A DNA stretch of 63,164 bases, counting the filler, from Stramenopiles sp. TOSAG23-2 (Eukaryota): the NCBI GenBank assembly GCA_900128395.1. It is 15 parts of 15 records of this genome, joined end to end, with 100 filler letters (N's around TTAATTAATTAA, not from the genome) between each part and the next. Parts side by side here need not be neighbours in the genome. Positions count along the whole stretch, not along the records: positions 1 to 4,147 come from LT650978.1; 14 more parts are not named here. One strand, 5' to 3'. Below are positions 1-13,482 of the stretch, piece by piece. Made by a program: the position numbers and the translations under genes. Under the pieces are notes generated by a model. The model was not told the DNA's origin. It searched no databases and saw nothing but the letters and a program-made list of their open reading frames with translations. Numbering within the stretch: the stretch's first letter is position 1; the number at the start of each line of letters is the position of its first letter.

Positions 1-1637
1 TCTGTACCATAAAACGTTGTATCATCAACACTTTCAAAATTAGATGGCAATACAGTGGAAAGAAATTTATGATTTACTAACGTATGATTAATCATATGCA
101 ATACCCTCAATGGAGCATATGCAGGTGTCATATGACCTGAATCCCTTACAGTTACAAAGTGAAAATCAACATTGCAAGTTGTATTGAAATTACGTGTAAA
201 CCCGCCAATTTGTGGTCCGGAATTTTTAGTATGTAACGTTTGTCCCCATGCCCATGGTTTTTCTACAATAGTTCCCATGTCAGTACCAGTTCCATTGAAA
301 AACCATGGTCTACGTACTCCTCCATTAACTTCCGTCAAGTTTAATGCTTCAATTGCTTTTTCTGTACCATGAAGATTGACGACTGGATCAATATCTCCGC
401 TAGAAACAATAATTGTTTTAAAATTTAATGTACTTGGCTTTTGCTCTTTACTCATCATTATTATTTCTTTGTAAATGTCTAACATATCTGATGTCTTACG
501 ATCTGGATTGTTATTACATGCACTGTATTCTGAATGGTAATTTGGATATCCATTATTACCAATTTCAATATGATATACTTTGTTTTTACTTCCATTTGCA
601 TTTAATGCTGTTTTTACATCTTGTAAATTTAAATAACCAGGCAGGTTTACACCGCCAGATGGGCCAAAGGCATTCAAAGGATCGATATACATTGGTAAAT
701 TATATATTGGATTTGGCTGTACAGCATTTCCAATACCAGCTAATGCAATATCGTACATTCTCCATGCCTTGCGACAATCTACCGTCTTTACTTGCCGTCT
801 ATAATCACCAACAGATGTACGCCCGCTTGAACATGCTTTGCTTTCAATTGTATTTAATGTTCCCATTGATATAATACCTTTCTCATATGCAAAGCGTGGA
901 TTTAAATCAAGCCATCCAAATTGATATTTATTAGAAGTGCAAGGATCTGTAACAAAAATTCCATTTAAATTAATATCTTTGACATTTTCAACAGTTTCCA
1001 ATAGTAATTGTGTAAATGTTGGGATATAAACTCCAGCGTATGATTCTCCTGCTATATATAATGGACGGCCTTTGTATTCTGGAAACAATGGTTGGTTTTT
1101 ATTATCTCCAATAATAAAAGATTGTAAAAATTTTAAATTCTGTTCAGCAACTAAAGTATCTGATGTATTACAAGGTGAACAAGATCCAGATGTTTGTGGG
1201 CATGGTGATGTACCATCGTAACTTGATTTACAGTAAGAATAGCCAATGCCAGGTGCAAATTCAACGTATAAAACGTTTGCAATATTATTCCATGAATATG
1301 GATTTCGTAATAGCTTCATATCAGATTTCAAAAGATATGGGCCGTTCTCACCAAACAAACCAGCAAAACTAGAAGCACCTGGTCCACCGTTCATCCACCA
1401 TATTAATGGTTTATCCATAGGATTTTCTTCTGCTTCTACTAGCATATAAAATAAATTTGTATCAGTAGCTTGATCAACATTTACAAATCCAGTATACATA
1501 TTACTAGTTGATCGTTTACTATATGCTGGCATCCCAGGCAAATGATTCACTTTCTTTTTCGTATTATGTCCATTAACTGTAAATGTACATATTATTAATA
1601 ATACAGTTAAAAATACGAGGATGTTAGATAAATTCAT
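1..1637 (-). CDS. Serine carboxypeptidase, peptidase family S10, secreted; 3' end runs off the contig
   Basis: Missing from the ORF track because there is no stop in the window. Manual translation from ATG 1637 gives signal peptide MNLSNILVFLTVLLIICTFTVNG, then WMNGGPGASSFAGLFGENGP, catalytic Ser motif GESYAG, SGDIDPVV (Asp) and FVTVRDSGHMTPAYAP (His). Confidence 0.92.
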   Translation of the reverse strand, partial: MNLSNILVFLTVLLIICTFTVNGHNTKKKVNHLPGMPAYSKRSTSNMYTGFVNVDQATDTNLFYMLVEAEENPMDKPLIWWMNGGPGASSFAGLFGENGPYLLKSDMKLLRNPYSWNNIANVLYVEFAPGIGYSYCKSSYDGTSPCPQTSGSCSPCNTSDTLVAEQNLKFLQSFIIGDNKNQPLFPEYKGRPLYIAGESYAGVYIPTFTQLLLETVENVKDINLNGIFVTDPCTSNKYQFGWLDLNPRFAYEKGIISMGTLNTIESKACSSGRTSVGDYRRQVKTVDCRKAWRMYDIALAGIGNAVQPNPIYNLPMYIDPLNAFGPSGGVNLPGYLNLQDVKTALNANGSKNKVYHIEIGNNGYPNYHSEYSACNNNPDRKTSDMLDIYKEIIMMSKEQKPSTLNFKTIIVSSGDIDPVVNLHGTEKAIEALNLTEVNGGVRRPWFFNGTGTDMGTIVEKPWAWGQTLHTKNSGPQIGGFTRNFNTTCNVDFHFVTVRDSGHMTPAYAPLRVLHMINHTLVNHKFLSTVLPSNFESVDDTTFYGT

Positions 1638-2185
1638 TATATTATATATGATGTATATACCTTTTTTTATTCGGTTGTGGATTTTCTTTTGTATCTATAT
1701 ATAATTATTATTAATAGTATTAAAAAATATAGATATTACGATGTTGTTGTATATTTAATAATTAATTCAAAAAAATAAACTATGTGACATAATAGTGCAA
1801 TATGTATAAATACATGTACTAGACAGTGTCTGCACGTCGTCTAGCTCTAATAATAATAATAATTTTTAACAATATATATTTTAATTTGTGTGGTGGACCT
1901 TAAAGACGACCACGCACCTAATAGTACGCGTCTAATACGAGACAAAACGATTAAGGATTATTGGATTACAAATAAGCCGGTCAATTCTCTCCTCCTCCTC
2001 AGGTCAACCTCTTCTACATTAACATATACACATGTACGTATACAATAACAAAAAGATATGTCGTATACGTCAAAGTAAAGAGAACAAGACATATATCTAT
2101 AGAGAGAAACTATATAAACCTACATATTAGTATCAAAAAAAACACAAAAAATATTATATATATATATATATATAAGTTTAATATC

Positions 2186-3650
2186 ATGAAAATTACAATT
2201 TTATTTTTACTGCTAGCTGCAGCAACCACTGCATATGGAGCATCATGGAAGAAACCTGAAACAGCTTTTGCTTCCGCTTTGATAGGAGTTGCAACCCCAG
2301 AAGCAAAATCCGCATTTATCACAGGTGGTAGCAATGGGCAGGGTGCAGAAGCATTGAGTTCCGGTGATGGTGGAAAAACTTGGGCCAACATGGAAATCGG
2401 TAAATGTTTTTTGCTTTTAGACACTGGGGCTAACTCAGATACATCGATTGTTATCAATGGTTTATTTGGTGCACAGTATAGTACAGATGGAAAATCCTTT
2501 CAAGCCGCACGTGGCGGAGGTGGACGTACGTAAAAAAACTCCCCTAAACCTTACAAAAGATATACCCTCTAACACACTCATTCCTACGCTACGTTCCACA
2601 GAGGGTCAAAGTGTTGAAGGCTTCGGCAAAAGTTCCTACGGTATAGTAGGAGCATTTGGTGGTGTTGCTGGTGGAGTTGCTATATCAAATGATGGCGGCA
2701 AAACATTTGAATCAAATGCTGTGTCTGTTTTAGATGCAAATCATCCAGTCAGATACGGAGCTTATCCAACAGCAGATACATGGTTTGTCTCAGCTGGATC
2801 TTGGCCTTCTAATTCTAATTTTGGCAGTGATGAAAAGACTGTATTGATTAAGCAGGTGAGCGAAACCATACAGGTTCGTCAAGATCGTAAAACTGGTGAA
2901 GTTTTCTATCATTACATTAATCCAAAAGAGTTAAGAAGCAACCCATCTTCTAATAATATCACTGCATACCATGCTGCTATTACCAAAACGACGTAAGTAA
3001 ATTCAATTCCCCTAAACCTAAAAAAGATATACCCTCTAACACGTCGCATACGCTACGCTCCACAGTGATGGTGGCAAAACATTTGAGAAATTATTTGAGA
3101 AAGACAATGCATGTTTCTATTTCAATGGCATTGATTGTTTTGATGATATGAGTTGCATTGCAGCTGCTGAAGGCCATAATTGTGCTAATCCTGGTGCATA
3201 CTTTTATGTGACCCATGATGGTGGCAAGACATGGAATGTGACAGGATCAGATGCAGGTGGTGGTGCCATGGGAGCTCGCATGGTCTCGAAAACTGAAGGT
3301 TGGATTGCTGGAGGTGGGGCAAATAAACTTGGACGTAAGTAAATTCTATTCTCGTAGATCTAAAATAGATATAACTTCTAACACATCACGCATTCATATG
3401 CTACGCTACACAGTTATGGAAGGAAGAATGTTCCATACAACAGTAAGTAAAATTCCCCTAAACAACCTAAAAAATTTATCCTCTCTAACACATCACTTAT
3501 TCTTATATACGTCAGGATGGAGGTTCGACTTGGGAGAAAGTTATTATTGATGGTGTCATCCCATTGGGCCTTGATTGTGCAGATGCGGATAATTGTGTTG
3601 CTACCGCTGTAACAAACACAAGACAAGCAACGGTTGCTCTTTATAATTAA
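2186..3650 (+). CDS. Secreted Asp-box/BNR-repeat beta-propeller protein (YCF48/VPS10-like fold); 5 exons: 2186-2525, 2602-2992, 3066-3334, 3414-3442, 3516-3650
   Basis: Signal peptide MKITILFLLLAAATTAYGA. Removing four GT-AG introns joins the fragmentary ORFs into one frame with repeated Asp-boxes (SGDGGKTW, STDGKSF, SNDGGKTF, TTDGGKTF, THDGGKTW, TTDGGSTW), ending ALYN-TAA at 3648-3650. Confidence 0.88.
2526..2601 (+). other. Spliceosomal intron 1 (76 nt, phase 1), introner-like
   Basis: GTACGT...CTAAC...CCACAG. Removal restores the frame (C+AG = Gln). Similar in sequence to introns 2-4. Confidence 0.88.
2993..3065 (+). other. Spliceosomal intron 2 (73 nt, phase 2), introner-like
   Basis: GTAAGT...CTAAC...CCACAG. 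Removal gives KTT-DGGKTF and completes an Asp-box. Confidence 0.92.
3335..3413 (+). other. Spliceosomal intron 3 (79 nt, phase 1), introner-like
   Basis: GTAAGT...CTAAC...ACACAG. Removal restores the frame into a 29-nt micro-exon. Confidence 0.88.
3443..3515 (+). other. Spliceosomal intron 4 (73 nt, phase 0), introner-like
   Basis: GTAAGT...CTAAC...GTCAG. Removal gives HTT-DGGSTW and completes an Asp-box. Confidence 0.9.
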
Positions 3651-3917
3651 ATTGCAGCATATGTAAAATATATAGAGAGAGATATACAAACCGCGATCAT
3701 TAAAACTTGCGCTTACAATAATCGTTTTGCTTTAAAATGTGCATTTGGCAAGTCGTATTATAAGTTGTTGTAACCCGGTACAATTTATTCTCCGCCTTCA
3801 TATGATGTCCGTTTTTCATCAACTGCAAGTTGATACCATCTATTTACCTTCTCATTGGTGTGAGATAGATACTTATTGTCTCAGTTATTGTATTCTTTCT
3901 GGAGAGTAGGAATTATC

Positions 3918-4038
3918 ATGAGTATAAATTAAAAAATAAATTATGCGTAAACTTAAAATTTTAAAATATAAAAATATCATATAATATTGTATTTTAATTA
4001 ATTAGATTAATGCATAACTTATTTTTTAATTTACTCAT
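3918..4038. mobile_element. Possible AT-rich MITE with imperfect ~32-bp terminal inverted repeats
   Basis: ATGAGTATAAATTAAAAAATAAATTATGCGTAAA (3918-3951) matches the reverse complement of 4007-4038 (ATGAGTAAATTAAAAAATAAGTTATGCATTAA). Related end sequences lie on other contigs at ~5328-5353, ~13146-13175 and ~54940-54960. No clear target-site duplication (TSD). Confidence 0.4.
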
Positions 4039-4147
4039 ATTTATAATATTTCGTGTATTTTAAAGAAACAGGACACCACACACACACTTTAAGAAACTTA
4101 ACGCTTTTTTAAAACGCTAAAAAATGTATTAGCCGCCAATATTAGAC

Positions 4148-4247
4148 NNNNNNNNNNNNNNNNNNNNNNNNNNNNNNNNNNNNNNNNNNNNTTAATTAAT
4201 TAANNNNNNNNNNNNNNNNNNNNNNNNNNNNNNNNNNNNNNNNNNNN
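4148..4247. other. Artificial contig linker (N44-TTAATTAATTAA-N44), first of 14
   Basis: The same 100-nt linker, with stops in all six frames, also occurs at 8382, 12613, 16840, 21066, 25292, 29509, 33720, 37931, 42141, 46349, 50557, 54762 and 58964. The contigs between them never increase in length (4147 down to 4101 bp). Confidence 0.98.
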
Positions 4248-4248
4248 C

Positions 4249-4995
4249 GTTTCATCATCAATATCTGTTGAATCTATTTATCGAGAAAAATTACTAGATA
4301 CAAATCCATTAACATGGCTTTTACAACGGCAAATAAAACGAAATATAGAAAGAATGCCACGTTTAATTGCCATTATTCGTGCAAAAAATGCAAGAATGGC
4401 AATACAACGTGGTATTGAATTAGTTGAAATGGGGTGTAAAGCTGTTGAAGTGACATTTGATACTGCTGATTTTGAAAATGTCTTACGAACACTTGTTAAT
4501 CGTTGTGGTAGCCGCGCACTTGTTGGTGTTGGTACAGCTATGTCAGTAGAAGATGTACGTATAGCAGCCAAACTAGGTGCTCAATTTGCATTATCACCAA
4601 TTAATCCTCCTGGTTTTGTTCAAGAATGCATTCGTTTAGGATTGTTAGCTGTACCTGCTGCATTTACACCTACTGAAGTATGGCGTGCACATTGCGAAGG
4701 TGCTCATTTCGTAAAACTATTTCCTGCACATTTATGGAATGCATCAACATTAAAAGCAATGTTGACTACTGGTAAATTAGCAAATGTCAGAGTTATGCCA
4801 AGTGGTGGTATATCACCAGAAACAGCGGAAAGTTGGTTCAATGCCGGTGCTGCTGGCGTTGGTATGGGTTCATGTTTATGTGGTAAAGATATTAAAATTG
4901 CAGATGAAAATAGTGAAGAATTTAAGAAAGCACGTGATGCATGGGATAGTAATGGGAAACATGTTGCAAAGAAAGCATTTGCAGAGTTGAATTGA
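4249..4995 (+). CDS. eda: KDPG/KHG aldolase family protein; frame stays open upstream of Met 4354 to the contig edge
   Basis: Family motifs LIAIIR, AVEVTF, LVGVGT, GAQFALSP, PAAFTPTE, Schiff-base Lys in VKLFPA, MPSGGI and AGVGMGS. Confidence 0.88.
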   Translation, partial: VSSSISVESIYREKLLDTNPLTWLLQRQIKRNIERMPRLIAIIRAKNARMAIQRGIELVEMGCKAVEVTFDTADFENVLRTLVNRCGSRALVGVGTAMSVEDVRIAAKLGAQFALSPINPPGFVQECIRLGLLAVPAAFTPTEVWRAHCEGAHFVKLFPAHLWNASTLKAMLTTGKLANVRVMPSGGISPETAESWFNAGAAGVGMGSCLCGKDIKIADENSEEFKKARDAWDSNGKHVAKKAFAELN

Positions 4996-5244
4996 AGGAG
5001 AGTGTGATTTAAATGTGTACGTACATTAGAGTGGTGTAAATATATTCGTAACATATCATATATATCATAATACAGAGTTCATTTTTCATTTTTTATTACA
5101 CGACTGCAAAGAAAGCATTTGCAGAGTTGAATTGAAGGAGAGTGTGATTTAAATGTGTACGTACATTAGAGTGGTGTAAATATATTCGTAACATATCATA
5201 TATATCATAATACAGAGTTCATTTTTCATTTTTTATTACACGAC
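4965..5244 (+). repeat. Perfect 140-bp tandem duplication covering the aldolase stop codon and 3' UTR
   Basis: 4965-5104 is identical to 5105-5244 (TGCAAAGAAAGC...TTACACGAC). Confidence 0.95.
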
Positions 5245-5429
5245 TTATATTTTACGAATATTTTTAACCACACAGTATATATGTTGTATGTATATTATAT
5301 ATACCACAATAAATATATCGGAGATCTAAAAATAAGTTAGTTATGCATTAATTAAATATATCGGAGATCTATATTTAAGAACGCAGTTGGAAAAATGATA
5401 TGCAAAGTAAATATATTTTACACTTGCTC

Positions 5430-6206
5430 TTACACCATAAAAACCTCATTGATTCTATTATTTTTATATACACTATAACGATCTAAATGCAATGCCCCAC
5501 CTTTTGCTACATATTTATAATCTATCAACAGTTCATATCTTAAATATTCTTCTACTACACGTCGAATATTTGCTTTTTTATTATTACTATGATTTCCTCT
5601 ACCAAGTATTACAATTAGATTTTGTTGACGATTTTCAATTTGAATTGTATGTAATACATATCGTATTCCACTTAATACAGAATATCTATTATGTTGATGT
5701 AAATCAAAAATGTAGTTAGAAAGTTTTCTCTCGTTTGCTTCTCCACCGTGTTTCTTTATCCATTTATTATTGTTGTTATTATTGTTGTTATTATTATTAA
5801 GCGGTTTTTCAATATTCATTTTATTTTGTTGTAACATTTGAAAATATAATAAATCACTAATATTTTCAGAAATGTTAAAATTTTCATTATTATTATGGTT
5901 TATAGCATAAATTAACGAATGATATGAACTAGCATTTAACTGATCAATATTTTCATTGCATATATTTACAATTTCTTTCTTTATCACTGTTTCATTATTA
6001 TCACAATTATCATTATTATTAGTCAACATCAATTCAAATATGTTATGTTTAATTTTATTCACGTCCTCATTATCATCCTTTGCAAAATTTGAAAATAATT
6101 TTGAATAATTACTTTGGATCCTATTTTGTTGATAACAACAACCTGCTATTGTATATTGTTTCTTATTTACATTTTTTATATTATTGATTATTATTTTTTT
6201 CCACAT
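5430..6206 (-). CDS. Smr (small MutS-related) domain protein, possibly organelle-targeted
   Basis: C-terminal Smr pattern FDLHQ...LIVILGRGNHS...IRRVVEEYL...GGAL. The N-terminus is basic and nearly free of acidic residues (...SKLFSN). Confidence 0.7.
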   Translation of the reverse strand: MWKKIIINNIKNVNKKQYTIAGCCYQQNRIQSNYSKLFSNFAKDDNEDVNKIKHNIFELMLTNNNDNCDNNETVIKKEIVNICNENIDQLNASSYHSLIYAINHNNNENFNISENISDLLYFQMLQQNKMNIEKPLNNNNNNNNNNNKWIKKHGGEANERKLSNYIFDLHQHNRYSVLSGIRYVLHTIQIENRQQNLIVILGRGNHSNNKKANIRRVVEEYLRYELLIDYKYVAKGGALHLDRYSVYKNNRINEVFMV

Positions 6207-6965
6207 TTCTTATATATCGACACACCGAGAAAGAGAGAGAGATAAATCAATCAAAATTATTATTCTTACTATTTACTATAATACAAAACTATCTAAATCA
6301 TCATCCACATAGGTATGTATATTTTTTTGTTTTCACGGTCAATTTATGATATTTATATATATAGTGGGTTATGCTTGGTATAGTGTATAGTATCCTATAG
6401 GGGCAGAAAATGGCCAAATAATGGCCACGAAATAGCATCACACAGCACTCACTACAATTTTCTAGCACGTACACACCATTAGTAATGCTATTCCATCCTA
6501 AGTTCAAAATTGGCCGGAGCAGGCACACAGGATGGGTTAAAAAACATCAATAAATTATATCGATACACTATAGGAAAATGGGTCTCACTATTTCCATTAG
6601 CATGACATAGCATTACATCGTATTGTATAGGTAATCAGTAGTAATTAGTCTACATAAAGTACAAGTGGCCATTCGACCACCCCCTACACTACAGGACAGG
6701 ATACTTCAGCTGGTCATGACTTCATCATCACATCATCACATTCAAAAAAAAGATAGTAGTAGTATAGTAGTGCTATAGCCATAATTTTTTTATTATTATT
6801 TATATATATATATATATTTTATCATTTTTTACATATACATGGAGAGATATAGGATGGAAGGCGACAAGGAGAAATAGAATAGACCAGATATATTATTATT
6901 ATTCATACATTTCTAATATTATCATTACGTATATTGAGAGAAAGTGTGATATATAGAAAAACAAA

Positions 6966-7795
6966 ATGAAAGTGTTATTTGTAATTGCAATCGCATTGTG
7001 CGCAATGGTTTATGCATCAGCACAAGTTGCACATTATTTGTAATTGCAATCGCATTGTGCGCAATGGTTTGTGATGCACAAGTTGCACCACAAGAATTAA
7101 AAAAAGCATTATTGGATTTATATAAAGCAACAAATGGTGATACGTGGACTACGAAGACAAATTGGAATACGGGGAATGATATATGTACATGGTATGGTGT
7201 GAAATGCCTTGAACATATGCAAAATGTTACTACCGACTTAGTTTTAAAATCAAACAATTTAGTTGGATCGATCCCAGCATCAATTAGTGTCTTGAAAGAT
7301 TTAAAAACATTGGATTTATCAGGTAATAAACTAACTGGCGTAATTCCATCAACTATTTCTGATTTGTATGTTTTACGGTTTTTATATTTAAATAACAATA
7401 TGCTTGAAGGACCATTGCCAGCTATGATATATAATCAAAATGTAACATTTCCAGTTGGAACCTATTTGCGTGAATTGAATTTAGAGCAAAATAAGCTTAG
7501 TGGTGATATTCCAAATACATGGTTTGGTCCAAGCCAAGCACCTACATTCCCCCCACCCGTAAATTTACAAGTCATCAACATGCGTTATAATAATTTGACT
7601 GGGACGATACCAGATTCGATAAGCAATGCACATGATTTAACTACATTATTATTAAGTTATAATGATATGACTGGTGATTTAAATGCATCAAAAGTATTGG
7701 ATTCCTGGCTTGGTACTCGTAAATATTGTGATTTAAATGGTAACAATTGGAAAGGCGATGTTCCAGATGCTGTTAAAAAAGCATGCTTTCCATAA
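6966..7795 (+). CDS. Secreted plant-type LRR protein (PGIP/LRR-receptor ectodomain-like); signal-peptide region disrupted by a 59-bp duplication
   Basis: N-cap ALLDLYKATNGDTW...NW...ICTWYGVKC, then LxLxxNxLxGxIP repeats. The natural ATG at 6966 (MKVLFVIAIALCAMV) reaches TAA at 7041 because 6975-7033 is repeated from 7034. Confidence 0.85.
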
Positions 7796-8481
7796 AATCA
7801 AGAAACCCAAACCAAGCAAACACAATCTATTATTATTGAAATCTAAATCTATATACAAAAATATATTTCATGTCGGAAAGTGCACAAGTCCAGAAGTCGG
7901 AAAACAAAGTAAAAGTAGAGAGGATCCTCTCTAAGTAAAAGGTAAAAAAAGAATAACTATAAACCACTAGAAATATTAGGACTGAAGACTGAATATAAAA
8001 AATTCCTTAATTCAATTGTAATATATATATAGGCATTTTATTATATTTAGATTACCTTATTAGCTATAATAAGTATAATTTCTTCGGGGCTACGTGCTAT
8101 ACACTAATACGGTCTTTTTTTTTTGTTTTTTTTTGTTGTTGTTGAATAATCAGTAGAATCAGGGTACCTGTGGTAATCCACCACCAGGTATAATAATAAT
8201 GGCAAAATGCACTAATATAAATAAAAAAATATATATTATTGCAAGTCGTTTTTTAGTAATTATTTATACAGAGGTATTATACTTTCGTATAATATATATT
8301 ATATATAATAAAACTTCAAAAAAAACAAATAAATGGGAAATAAAACATCGAAAATTATCGTACGTAAACAATATATAAGAANNNNNNNNNNNNNNNNNNN
8401 NNNNNNNNNNNNNNNNNNNNNNNNNTTAATTAATTAANNNNNNNNNNNNNNNNNNNNNNNNNNNNNNNNNNNNNNNNNNNN

Positions 8482-10302
8482 TTGCTGCATCATGTTGTTG
8501 TTGTTTAACATCATCATTATGTTCACATACAAAATGTTCTAGACGTGTATCAACATTTATGGTAAGTAAATAATGTATAATATAATAAATAATGAAATAA
8601 ACACAAAATAAAAACAACATTTATCATACTAACAATTTATATATAAATACAGTATGTATTAATCACTATATTTACATGTATTTTAGCTGCAATATTAAAA
8701 GTATACGTAGCACCTGAACATATAAAATCTGCAAAAGCTATTGCTGGCGAAGACGTATGGAATACAAAAGAAGGTGCAGAAAAACATTTATATTATGCAG
8801 TAAATGATTGTGCATTACGTGCAACAAATATATTAAATGTTACAACAAATAGTGTAAGCAATAATGCAGCTGATGCAGTATATGACGAAAAAGTTATGCT
8901 AAAACCTGATGGTACAATTGTGACACGTGATGATATTATCATTGAATGTGTTGGTAATTACTTTGTCTATCGCGCATCGTTTACGTTAACAATATTTTAT
9001 ATTGTATTGGTATTTGCAACTGCTGCATTAACTGTTGCGCATAACGGTTGTTGGGCATTTAAATTTGGTATATATGGTATAGGTTTTGTATTGACATTTT
9101 TTTTACCAAATCCAATTTTTTATATCTTTGCTGGTTTTGCACGTGCATTTTCCATCATATTTATATTGTTGCAAATATTTATATTAGTTGATTTTGCATT
9201 TGAATGGTGGGAAGATTTTATGAAGAAAATCAAAACATCAGCAGATGAACCAATCCCATTTCTATGTTGTCACGTAACATCACTTGGTTTGAAATGTTTA
9301 TTTATAACAAGTTGTATTGGTTTGTTTTTATGTGGAATAATTGGTAGTATATTATTATATGCACTTTATAGTGGTGGTAAAAATGATGTGACTGGGGAAG
9401 ATGAATCATGTGGTTTGAATATATTATTTACTACAATTACATTATTACTTGGTATTCTTGCAATTGTATGTGGTGTGATTGATTTAAAAGGTGCACCATC
9501 AATTGGATTACTTGTACCAAATGTTGTTTTTTCATATTGTGTTTACATCACATGGACTGCAGCAATCAATAATCCAGAAAAAGGTTGTAATCCAACTGCT
9601 GGTTCATTTGGTAGTGATGGCGGGATGATCTTTTTTGGTATTTGTGTAACTGCATTTTCATTGGCATGGGCAAGTTTAAGAACTGCATGGGCGACACAAG
9701 ATCTTGTAAAATCAACCTCATCAGCAGATGTAACACTTGAAGATATTGAAGCAACGATGGACGATGATGATGATAGTAAAGAAGGCAAACGTCGTAAACG
9801 ACAAAAAGAACGGGAACGAAAGAAAAAAGAACGGGAAGAAAAGAGAAAAAAGAAGAAAAAGAAGAAAAAAGATGATGATGATGATGCAAATATGATTTCA
9901 CAAGATGATGATAATGATGTTGAACAACGTAATAATAAAAAAAAGAAAGATGATGATGATGATGAAAATGGTAACGCATTGCAACATTCAGATGATGATT
10001 CAGATGATGAGGGAAAAGGTGAAGATAAAGATTTAACAAAAGAAGATGAAGATGATAAAGATCGTTATCATTGGTTATTTCATTTAATCATGGCATTTGG
10101 TGCTGTATATGTTGCGATGTTATTAAGTGATTGGGGTAATGGTACTGGTATGACACGTGAAGAAAACGATGCGACTGCATATACAGCTATGTGGGTAAAT
10201 GCAATTGGATCATGGTGTGCATATTTCTTATTTATGTGGATACGTTTTGCACCTATTTGTTGTCCAGGTAGAGATTTCAATATGGAACGAGAGAATTTTT
10301 AG
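8482..10302 (+). CDS. SERINC: SERINC/TMS1 (serine incorporator) family membrane protein; 5' truncated, intron 8562-8652
   Basis: Cys-rich start AASCCCCLTSSLCSHTKCSRRVSTFM, then GTAAGT...TACTAAC...TACAG, then YVLITIF in frame with ORF 8896. Motifs VYRASF, HNGCWAFK, FILLQIFILVDFA, FHLIMAFGAVYVAMLLSDW and APICCPGRDF. Confidence 0.92.
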
Positions 10303-10794
10303 AAAGATGTTCGTTGTATTACGTAGGTCGTAGATGAGATACGAACTCGTATATAAAAATGGTAAATGTGTGTACGAGCCGACGAGCCGTCAGTATTGAA
10401 ATACGACGCGTATAAATTTTAGAGTGTGATATTTGTTCAATATATTAATATTAAAAGTGTAAGGAAGACATTTAACTTTTTTTTATAAAAAAATAAGCAC
10501 CGCACCCACACACACAGTATAATTAGTCGAGCTAGCTCTTACACCACACGCTCCCTAATCTCTGTCTCCCACTACTGTCTCTCCGTCAATAAATAATTTA
10601 GGCATATATATATATGTATATCTCTTTTCAATCCATCTTTCTTGCATATATACATCATATATATTATATAATAATAATAATCAAATGTGTCGCGCGTGGC
10701 AATCAAGTTTTTTAACACACACACATTGTTATATCATTTCTCTTGTTTCATCTTTTCAGTTCCATTCAAGTTCAAATTACGTATCATATATTCT

Positions 10795-11607
10795 TTAAAT
10801 TTCTCTTGAACGTTTTTTTTTAGCACCATCATTGTAATATTCATCTTCATCATCTTTTTTTCTTTTATTACCTGCTGCTTGTTGTGCTCCTCCTGATAAT
10901 TTTTTGCCAGTATATTTGGCAAGACGTTTTTTGTATCTCGTCTCTATAGTTGAGATTTTGTCTTCGTATTTTTTCTTTTGTTTTTCTAATTGTCCTTTGA
11001 CAGCTTCAAATGCAACTTTTAATTTGTAAATTTCCATTTTGTGTCCTTTTTTAAGACGACGAATATGTGTTTCCAATGCACTTGACGTGCCGAAACTTTC
11101 TCCTGTCCATTGACATTGCCATTTCGTATTGCTTTTCTCGTGTACACGTTTGATGTGGCGTTTCAATGTTTTGCGAGCACCTAAAAGTTTACCACAGATA
11201 TCACATTTAAACTTTACACCATCATGAATCAATGTATGTGCTTTCAAAGCACCACTATCATGAAAAGCTTTTCCACACGTAAGACATTTAAATGGTCGTT
11301 CACCAGTATGTGCACGTCGAATATGCAAACGTCTTGAACTGGAATAATTGAATGATCGAGTGCATCCTTCGTAAGTACATTTGTATTTACCATTTTGGAT
11401 CGTAGGTTGATTCGCAGTATTGCCAATTTTTTTCACATAGGTCGATACATCCCATTCTTGTGAAACAGATTTTGGTACCCGTTGTAATTTTCTTTTTGAT
11501 ATTTTTACTTTCACACCTTCCGTACCAGTAATTTGTTCTACAATTTGATTGGCAGTTTGTGGTGGAGGTGATTTTGCTGGGGAAGCAGTTGTCGTAACTT
11601 TTGGCAT
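10795..11607 (-). CDS. C2H2 zinc-finger transcription factor with C-terminal coiled coil
   Basis: CTYEGC...HIRRAH, TGERPF linker, CLTC...HTLIH, CDIC...HIKRVH and a fourth degenerate finger, followed by a heptad-rich basic tail. Confidence 0.92.
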   Translation of the reverse strand: MPKVTTTASPAKSPPPQTANQIVEQITGTEGVKVKISKRKLQRVPKSVSQEWDVSTYVKKIGNTANQPTIQNGKYKCTYEGCTRSFNYSSSRRLHIRRAHTGERPFKCLTCGKAFHDSGALKAHTLIHDGVKFKCDICGKLLGARKTLKRHIKRVHEKSNTKWQCQWTGESFGTSSALETHIRRLKKGHKMEIYKLKVAFEAVKGQLEKQKKKYEDKISTIETRYKKRLAKYTGKKLSGGAQQAAGNKRKKDDEDEYYNDGAKKKRSREI

Positions 11608-13482
11608 GTTGTACTTGATTCGTTGTTGTTAATCACTCTGTCTGTCTCTTTCTCTCTGAATTGCTTTTTTTTTTTTGTTCTTTGTATTAAATGATTCCAC
11701 TCTGTCCTCTTGAACCTCTTGTACTTTCTTGTATGTATTTCGGCAGTTTAAATCTATATATATGTGTGTTTTCGCAATGTGTCAGTCGCTCAAAATATAT
11801 ATTAACAAGTATATATTTTAAAATATACCTATCAGATCGGATCACGTTTAAAAATACAATGCTATGCCAATACTAATTGCCCCATCTTTCGTTCAATTTT
11901 CTTCACATTGCTGATTAAAGTGTCCAGTTTAATCATTTCTATTGATGGAAAACCAAATAACGATGAAACCTACTCTTTACTTGTGTGTATAGTAATTTAT
12001 ATAAAGTTCCTATATGTTTTAGTGAAGTGTGGACCTAAATATTTGATTCCATTTCTTGTTTATGCATTGATGCCCCTCTGTTTTTATGGCCTTAAAGAAA
12101 TTTCATAAAGTGATTTTCTTCCTCGATTTGGGTTGTGTTGCAAAGCAAAAAGAACTTTTTGTGCAAAGTTTGAAAATTAGATTCCATGTTCAAAATAAAC
12201 ACAATTGCACAATTCATAAATTTTGTTAGGATGTTATTTGGATGCCCAGTATAATTATTCGTAATGTTGATGCTCATAATTTTCCCTAATACCTTAACAC
12301 CCAACAAGACAAATACCTTAACATTTTTATAAAAAACCAAAATAATTTCCAATTTAAATTAAACTAAACTAATATATATATATACAAAATCGAATGAGCA
12401 GAACAAACATATCATGAGAGAAGAAAAGATGAAAAATATTTTGTGTGAAAATATTAAGAGGTATAACGAGAACATATAAATTTACCTTCAAGACATTGTG
12501 AACAATTATTCAAACAAAAAAAACATAAAATTAATTATTTATAAGAAACAATAGTATTTTATAGAATCATTTTTTAATTAACACATTTTGACGTTTATTT
12601 AAATACAAATATNNNNNNNNNNNNNNNNNNNNNNNNNNNNNNNNNNNNNNNNNNNNTTAATTAATTAANNNNNNNNNNNNNNNNNNNNNNNNNNNNNNNN
12701 NNNNNNNNNNNNGTAATATTTGGTATCAAAACTTTGTTTATTTCGATCAAAACTCCTAAAAATTAAATCTTAATGATGTTCCTTATAAATTAAATATTAT
12801 ACTATTAGAACTATTATACTATTTGAAATCTACTTTTTTGATAGCAGGAACTAATAGTATAATTGCCGCATAAGTACCACATTGGTATTTTATACTTGAA
12901 AAGTGTTTTAGAATACATAGTTTCTTAGATGGTTCTCCTTAAAGCTCCTTAACTTTTTATATGGAACACTTCTTTTGAATCAATATCTATAGTTCTAATA
13001 GTTTGATTTTACAGACAAATTTTTTTTCTAATTAAGGATTATATCAACAAATTCCTAAAGTTGATGTTGCAAGTTAAATACATTTAATAAAAATAGATAA
13101 TATAAAATAGGACATTACGAAACATTTTTAAATTATAATTTATTCTATGCATTAATTTATTTTTAATTTACTCATGCATTTATATATGTAGAGATCTTTA
13201 CCCTATGATGTATTAACATAATAAATTGCCATCCTTGCCGCGTTGTACAAGCTTCCGTTGACCATCTTTATTGTTTATCACTTGAAACATCTCTGTAAAG
13301 CTGTATCGATAAATAATAATCAAAAAGCTGGAAAGAAAGTTTGGGTTTTAATTGTATTTGCATGCTTTTTTAATCAAAAAGCTGGAAAGAAAGTCGCCAA
13401 GCCCCCCCTTTTTTACACAAAAATAATCTTAAGATTCCTTATTTTACAAATAGCTCTTTTTGGTGCCGTAAAGCATAAATGG

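Follow-up and report, generated by a model that had tools for sequence, protein, structure and literature searches.

How new spliceosomal introns arise has long been an open question, and introners, found chiefly in aquatic protists, form the principal source known for continuing intron gain (PMC9860276). This question is raised by a gene in a 63,164-base stretch of DNA from Stramenopiles sp. TOSAG23-2 (assembly GCA_900128395.1), hereafter the window. The gene, which encodes a secreted-looking BNR/Asp-box repeat protein (the BNR gene), lies in the first piece of the window (bases 1-4147) and is interrupted by four introns of similar sequence. An initial annotation, made from the sequence alone, ascribed these introns to recent gain by one element family that might not be a standard DNA transposon. 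Are the introns copies of one mobile element and, if so, how might it have moved? The analysis presented here indicates that they are likely to stem from one short mobile spliceosomal intron (an introner, or introner-like element, ILE) that inserted four times independently. That they belong to a mobile intron family recently gained in this gene is highly likely. The dispersal of the family, the intronless homologues and the lack of target-site duplications (TSDs) and terminal inverted repeats (TIRs) support the view taken in the annotation.

The four introns are homologous and spliced

The coordinates, lengths and shared strings first reported for the four introns (Table 1) proved correct, including the exact 21-mer common to introns 1 and 2, as did their phases (1, 2, 1 and 0) and the dissimilarity of their exon flanks. 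A MAFFT alignment of the four comprised 82 columns, 38 of them invariant, with a mean column identity of 80% over the full length. An nhmmer profile built from the four introns recovered each of them with E values of 1.3e-19 to 1.8e-10, while the next best match in the 63,164-base window had E = 3.7. The intron of the SERINC gene (8562-8652, 91 nt), which carries GTAAGTAAAT, TACTAAC 20 nt from its end and ACAG, served as a non-family comparison. As had been stated, it does not resemble the four: all it has in common with them is GTAAGTAAAT, the CTAAC branch motif and ACAG. A frame-based heuristic applied to the related contigs described below returned 38 family candidates and eight non-family introns. 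The latter were AT-rich, 86-114 nt long and had only generic splice signals in common; two of the eight look like decayed family copies. The ∼50 nt between the splice signals are thus family-specific, since the ordinary introns of the same contigs lack them.

Strong constraint on splice signals in an intron-poor genome, rather than common descent, might be thought to produce such likeness, and the ordinary introns found here do carry GTAAGTAAAT, CTAAC and ACAG as well. Under this explanation, however, the ∼50 nt between the signals would not be expected to be conserved too, nor to be missing from the ordinary introns of the same contigs (eight non-family introns against 38 family candidates). 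Further, the four-intron profile matches no other window sequence, and two copies at separate loci, described below, are 100% identical. The profile search, the identical copies and the unlike ordinary introns contradict splice-signal constraint, which is hardly credible as the source of a similarity that extends beyond both splice signals and chance. The annotation also described most other genes in the window as intronless, a statement that was checked only roughly, using an open reading frame (ORF) list and the above heuristic.

All four window introns are spliced. In two studies, RNA contigs (runs X15 and X16) lack 76, 73, 79 and 73 nt where the four introns lie and retain the 29-nt micro-exon between the joints of introns 3 and 4. 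The joints 2992>3066 (seen in two runs), 3334>3414 and 3442>3516 were placed at GT..AG. That of intron 1 was placed 2 nt leftward (AC..AC); a C>G variant at position 2525 in the expressed lineage would explain the shift. The split codon specifies Gln in the window and Glu in homologue P0048. Intron-skipping joints were absent from the contigs of two DNA runs (X1 and X6), so that their presence in both RNA studies confirms the predicted splicing. The spliced model of 387 amino acids (aa) is colinear with database homologues of 381-388 aa, with no indels at the four junctions in the closest three.

Copies of the same intron occur in unrelated genes

The DNA depth over intron 2 was 54 against ∼6.5 in run X1, and 366 against 17 in run X6, which indicates that many other contigs match this intron. 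Some contigs of the DNA runs start exactly at position 2993 with unlike upstream sequence, and others link parts of introns 2, 3 and 4 via foreign letters. Metagenome contigs were scanned once with an internal two-block pattern requiring two motifs, one of them the branch site. Of the 56 loci obtained, 41 contained matches to the four-intron profile (56 matches with E < 1e-3); G+C was 31-37% on every one of their contigs. The remaining 15 loci, mostly of 45-54% GC and without a match to the profile, were dropped as chance matches; a single pattern match in IMG/VR, on a phage-like contig lacking the family signal, was likewise due to chance. A profile built from 46 copies gave two marginal matches (E about 0.008) in two of the dropped loci, which were taken as products of the scan pattern, and added one decayed copy and no intergenic ones.

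Together with the four in the window, 60 copies were found at 47 distinct sites (clustered by flank), 43 of them outside the window. Most profile matches cover model positions 1-76, and the copies begin with GT and finish with AG. All sites but one, located at a contig end, could be evaluated. At each of these 46 sites, cutting at the family GT..AG restored an open frame, with at least 58 codons open on both sides in 39 cases. For the 42 evaluable sites other than those of the window, splicing is known from this frame restoration only. Copies were 61-98 nt in length and lay in phases 0, 1 and 2 in 19, 11 and 16 cases, respectively. The proteins encoded by the flanks were unrelated except for overlaps within the same gene and three paralogue pairs. 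Pfam matches among the hosts included family-3 GPCR, EF-hand, LRR, EML WD40, GH35, GH38, DegV/Dak2, GT1, DAO, lipase plus FYVE, sulfatase, CoA-transferase, ABC, MFS, RPE65 and desaturase. The annotation had proposed looking for copies in unrelated genes, whose absence would have spoken for an origin within the gene; 43 further sites, all with GT..AG and with unrelated flanks, were found. The four introns are homologous, the family is dispersed, and the family boundaries are the intron boundaries.

Divergence from the family consensus ranged from 2.5 to 22% (median 9.5%), the four window copies lying at 9-15%. Two 80-nt copies, L029:701-780 and L033:2056-2135, were 100% identical despite unrelated flanks, one being in a DAO oxidoreductase gene and the other in a lipase/FYVE gene. 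Such exact copies at different loci suggest recent activity. A copy on contig L052 is of the same subtype, with an altered 3′ end. In a few other copies (L004:2854-2939(-), L017:2927-3024(-), L049 and L051:1640-1720) the donor GT that restores the frame is found 7-10 nt upstream from where the family has GTAAGT, which suggests that the 5′ splice site moved following insertion. With regard to copies per genome, there are four in the 63 kb of the window and five on contig L006 alone; the 43 additional sites lie on metagenome contigs of related lineages.

The copies in the gene were probably inserted separately

If the four introns had arisen by local duplication or gene conversion inside the BNR gene, rather than from a genome-wide element, they should be each other's closest relatives. 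They are not, which argues for separate insertions: the best same-gene partner of the four ranked only 33rd, 11th, 32nd and 5th of 45. Across the family, mean similarity was 0.769 for same-gene and 0.756 for between-gene pairs (p = 0.26), an event-based distance did not distinguish same-gene from other pairs (p = 0.82), and three of 20 nearest neighbours were from the same gene (p = 0.09). Local copying would account for the 21-mer shared by introns 1 and 2, for the two copies on contig L057, which are sisters with a unique common 5′ indel, and for two diverged paralogue pairs with near-identical copies at the same position. Nevertheless, it does not fit with the 43 sites in unrelated genes, nor with the different phases and dissimilar exon flanks in the window. 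As a general rule it was rejected, same-gene pairs being no more alike than others, and as the origin of the four introns it is very improbable.

The two paralogue pairs deserve separate description. In the DegV/Dak2-like pair (L057:558-629 and L026:614-683) the proteins are ∼25-43% identical and the introns, at the same site, 95.8%. In the other pair (L002:98-173 and L024:3573-3646) the introns are 94.7% identical, and the common flank comprises the 15 upstream nt available on L024 plus ∼63 nt downstream. Parallel targeted insertion or short-tract gene conversion could have produced these copies.

The annotation regarded the copies as oddly concentrated in one gene. The 32 other contigs carry one copy in 25 cases, two in six and five in one. 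Six additional copies lay within 1 kb of an index copy, over a total of 58.5 kb; from the copy-free 59 kb of the window, no more than 2.98 would be expected (p = 0.08). Dense placement is thus plausible, but at this level of support it is not established.

Several homologues appear to lack the introns

The homologues of the BNR protein inform on the time of gain. P0021 (82% protein identity) is an uninterrupted ORF of 424 aa on a contig of 35.6 kb, and the spurious extension at its N-terminus indicates a plain ORF call, not a spliced gene model. P0028 (∼69% identity; 32-kb contig), P0006 and P0040 (56-60% identity; contigs of 15.6 and 9.1 kb) are uninterrupted ORFs as well. The introns therefore appear to be missing from these four homologues of up to 82% identity on contigs of 9-36 kb, as expected of new introns, and the same intron positions were not found in any of the four. 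Recent gain of the introns is probable, given that each of these homologues is read as one unbroken ORF on a long contig. When the homologues and the family are considered together, gain in the lineage of the window appears the simplest reading.

Three further database ORFs bear on individual introns. P0017 terminates by reading into intron 3. P0051, which lies on a 705-nt contig and itself matches about 3396-3650 of the window, starts in the 3′ end of intron 3 and crosses the intron-4 site unbroken; it could represent an allele with intron 3 and without intron 4, or a partly spliced transcript. P0011 (403 aa, 45% identical, 4.1-kb contig) loses similarity just past the intron-3 position and continues with unrelated residues, so this ORF call may run into an intron near that position in a distant relative.

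Structure of the element and possible mechanism of insertion

The consensus of the family is 80 nt long, non-coding and poor in G (35% A, 28% C, 8% G, 28% T). Each copy has a donor of extended GTAAGTAAAT form and a branch site, CTCTAACAC, located ∼32 nt from the 3′ end, as well as CCACAG. GTAAGT was present in 37 of the 46 evaluable copies and ACAG in 38, with CTAAC mostly 32 nt from the 3′ end. With all three splice signals inside each copy, the whole insert would be removed exactly from the mRNA, leaving the host protein unchanged. In the 5′ part of the element, CCCTAAAC is followed by CTAAAA (window positions 2542-2549, 3010-3017 and 3456-3463, and most family copies). This is reminiscent of almost two plant-type telomere repeat units; telomere arrays were absent from all sequences examined, and the CCCTAAAC motif stays unexplained.

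The copies were examined for transposon hallmarks. No TSD was found for lengths of 2-8 nt at any junction offset, the best excess being 3 of 46 against 0.82 expected; the sole exon preference was a G at position -1 (20 of 46 copies, against a background of 21%). Inverted termini, judged by folding, were not found: a consensus-like copy, L039:1624-1702(-), had a minimum free energy of 0 kcal/mol (z = +1.2). Nor was a stable RNA fold found in six copies, whose z-scores ranged from -1.1 to +1.2. Rfam gave no match on window positions 1-4147 at E up to 1, and nothing thus points to a snoRNA or another known RNA within the introns. The first impression that TIRs and a clear TSD are lacking has thus been confirmed.

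All 46 evaluable copies lie within coding sequence in the sense orientation. None was intergenic or antisense, although long ORFs leave ∼19% of the family-bearing contigs uncovered; the chance of finding all 46 within ORFs is 0.81^46, or about 6e-5. The flanks of the insertion sites were slightly GC-richer than the remaining host exons (36.8% against 34.6%, p = 0.009), and GC skew, used as a proxy for R-loops, showed no difference from the rest of the host exons (p = 0.76).

Given the lack of transposon hallmarks and the placement of every copy in exons and in sense orientation, a route through the spliceosome seems the most likely. The four copies probably entered the gene after its lineage split from the sister lineage in which the gene is intronless. 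An excised intron would be reverse-spliced into a transcript, or into single-stranded DNA displaced in a transcribed gene, and then be copied into DNA. Both routes, with either mRNA or the displaced DNA strand of R-loops as the target, have been proposed, and the latter would also account for sense orientation and insertion hot-spots (PMC10996645, PMC4540971). Introners shorter than 200 nt without TIR or TSD form a published class for which reverse-splicing models have been put forward (PMC10996645, PMC4540971), and the features of the present family match it. As a mechanism, transposase-free, spliceosome-dependent insertion is advanced tentatively, as a possibility with nearly even prospects.

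A non-autonomous DNA transposon would be the alternative, that is, an introner resembling a miniature inverted-repeat transposable element, with its transposase encoded elsewhere and with selection having left only the sense, spliceable copies in exons. Most introner families outside ascomycetes (78.5% of those scorable) have a TSD or TIR and are interpreted as DNA elements (PMC9860276); the present family belongs to the minority with neither. Selection can yield sense-only as well as exon-only placement, and the GC-rich bias of the flanks is also reported for DNA-type introners. Such a transposon, however, should have left a TSD at one of the offsets and lengths (2 to 8 nt) tested and inverted termini, whereas the consensus-like copy lacks predicted pairing. 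Neither would the ends of similarity be expected to coincide exactly with GT and AG, nor the ∼19% of contig sequence outside long ORFs to be free of copies. An origin of this kind is rather unlikely.

Several points weigh against mobility of a spliceosomal intron as the overall explanation. The four-intron profile detected no fifth copy in the other ∼59 kb of the window. The scan pattern includes the branch site, so copies maintained by splicing were favoured, and the 43 additional sites were drawn from several related lineages (with 96-99% identical duplicates), not from one genome. The intronless state of the sister gene is based on database ORF calls and the lengths of their contigs, and uninterrupted ORFs on short contigs may be transcripts. 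The TSD test is blind to a duplication composed of the invariant ends of the element. Sense-only, exon-only placement could follow from selection after unbiased DNA insertion. Finally, no reverse-splicing intermediate, lariat or circle was observed, and a stem pairing the 5′ splice site, of the type proposed for Micromonas, is absent.

A more specific proposal is that this is an active, spliceosome-transposed introner that has no TIR, TSD, stable fold or 5′-splice-site stem and is simply a G-poor (8% G), unstructured intron with near-ideal signals, devoid of all structural features hitherto suggested to confer mobility on an intron. On present evidence this is doubtful. If true, mobility may require only an unstructured intron with optimal signals, and the patchy occurrence of introns in close lineages (e.g. 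the 82%-identical sister has none of the four present here, and the P0051 ORF crosses the intron-4 site) could let intron gain be tracked directly in ocean metagenomes.

The host gene and its surroundings

The coding sequence of the BNR gene starts at the ATG at 2186 and comprises five exons that encode the 387-aa product (Table 1).

Table 1. Exons of the BNR gene and family introns within it (window coordinates)
Feature	Position	Strand	Characteristics
Exon 1	2186..2525	+	ATG at 2186; signal-peptide-like N-terminus; colinear homologues
Intron 1, family copy	2526..2601	+	76 nt; phase 1; GTACGT..ACAG; CTAAC 2569-2573; nhmmer E 4.8e-18; 13.2% from consensus
Exon 2	2602..2992	+	covered by RNA contigs; colinear homologues
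Intron 2, family copy	2993..3065	+	73 nt; phase 2; GTAAGT..ACAG; CTAAC 3036-3040; nhmmer E 1.3e-19; 9.3% from consensus
Exon 3	3066..3334	+	weak Pfam BNR match; colinear homologues
Intron 3, family copy	3335..3413	+	79 nt; phase 1; CTAAC 3378-3382; nhmmer E 6.4e-19; 14.8% from consensus
Exon 4, 29-nt micro-exon between two family copies	3414..3442	+	RNA contigs; colinear homologues
Intron 4, family copy	3443..3515	+	73 nt; phase 0; ends TCAG; CTAAC 3485-3489; nhmmer E 1.8e-10; 13.3% from consensus
Exon 5	3516..3650	+	stop codon 3648-3650; colinear homologues

The window consists of 15 pieces of ∼4.1 kb joined by N44-TTAATTAATTAA-N44 linkers, adjoining pieces being perhaps distant in the genome, and contains an extra run of 108 N at 36669-36776. 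Its DNA is eukaryotic and of ∼30% G+C, with genes for, among others, tubulin, SERINC, a serine carboxypeptidase and a sugar transporter. The BNR gene was present in public runs labelled as marine or seawater metagenome or metatranscriptome, plus a few very small coded-organism runs. The host of the introner family is an uncultured, AT-rich marine protist.

Contig L011, among the family-bearing loci of the metagenome scan, corresponds to the same locus at 95-96% identity and has all four introns. Relative to window positions 1877-1932, it contains an additional segment of ∼2 kb (L011:2147-4128) that separates the BNR gene from the serine carboxypeptidase gene upstream. This segment encodes an aldo/keto reductase of 363 aa and is a gene presence/absence difference between close lineages. 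Directly 3′ of the BNR gene, at 3615-4031, the summed contig depth reached ∼400 to 12,800 in the two DNA runs, against 6-20 over the gene. This region includes an AT-rich inverted repeat (3918-4038), and a segment of ∼70-100 nt of it recurs at window positions 38355-38424 and 41747-41816 and on contigs L015 and L029. The repeated segment may be a common intergenic repeat or an element of terminator regions.

Comparison with known introners

Introners were reported in 5.2% of 3,325 genomes, mostly of aquatic protists, in a survey that included 520 partial genomes from Tara Oceans (Gozashti et al. 2022, PMC9860276). The definition used there comprises similarity that reaches to near both splice boundaries, that stops before the exons and so excludes paralogous genes, and that involves real spliced introns, as well as five or more copies per genome; the 63 kb of the window contain four. 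In the present family, similarity extends to both boundaries and stops before the exons at the 47 sites, the pairs L002/L024 and L057/L026 being exceptions, and the four window copies are real introns spliced in RNA. The family is compact and readable, with spliced copies in one gene, an intronless sister gene, and identical copies at different loci. Because features of a DNA transposon are lacking, the family brings to the small group of introners that are maybe moved by the spliceosome an example from beyond the fungi and green algae. Further, the abundance of the host in public marine metagenomes and metatranscriptomes means that insertion polymorphism and splicing could be studied without culture.

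With the DNA-transposon introners of Micromonas pusilla, Aureococcus, Symbiodinium and others (PMC9860276), the family has in common that insertion into exons creates introns, that copies are enriched in genes, and that sites show a mild GC-rich bias. As described in that survey, those elements have TSDs of 3-9 bp and/or TIRs, and often derive one splice site from the TSD. The present element differs in that it has neither, and in that both splice sites lie inside the conserved element.

The ILEs of Dothideomycetes likewise lack TSDs and TIRs, carry their own splice signals and decay towards ordinary introns (PMC3609843). The near-identical copies at homologous positions of paralogues also recall the 'parallel gains' described for fungal ILEs (PMC4457414). 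According to the published description, however, fungal ILEs are longer than regular introns and have a stable predicted secondary structure (PMC3609843), whereas the present copies are unstructured and measure 61-98 nt, against 86-114 nt for the ordinary introns and 91 nt for that of SERINC.

In the Micromonas introner elements, all families are described as having a stem in which the 5′ splice site is paired to sequence downstream of it (PMC4540971); no such stem is predicted here. Judging from the published descriptions, the present element is further set apart from them by being much shorter and AT-rich, and by its different host lineage. The resemblance to these elements (Simmons et al. 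2015, PMC4540971) and to the families without TSD or TIR (PMC9860276) is nevertheless extensive. It includes near-identical introns that occupy unrelated genes in a marine protist, similarity that runs from splice site to splice site, the lack of transposon hallmarks, the existence of exact copies and the absence of the introns from close relatives; insertion hot-spots have been proposed for Micromonas too (PMC4540971). The kind of element is thus already known, and the family described here is a further member that may already have been catalogued by Gozashti et al. (2022).

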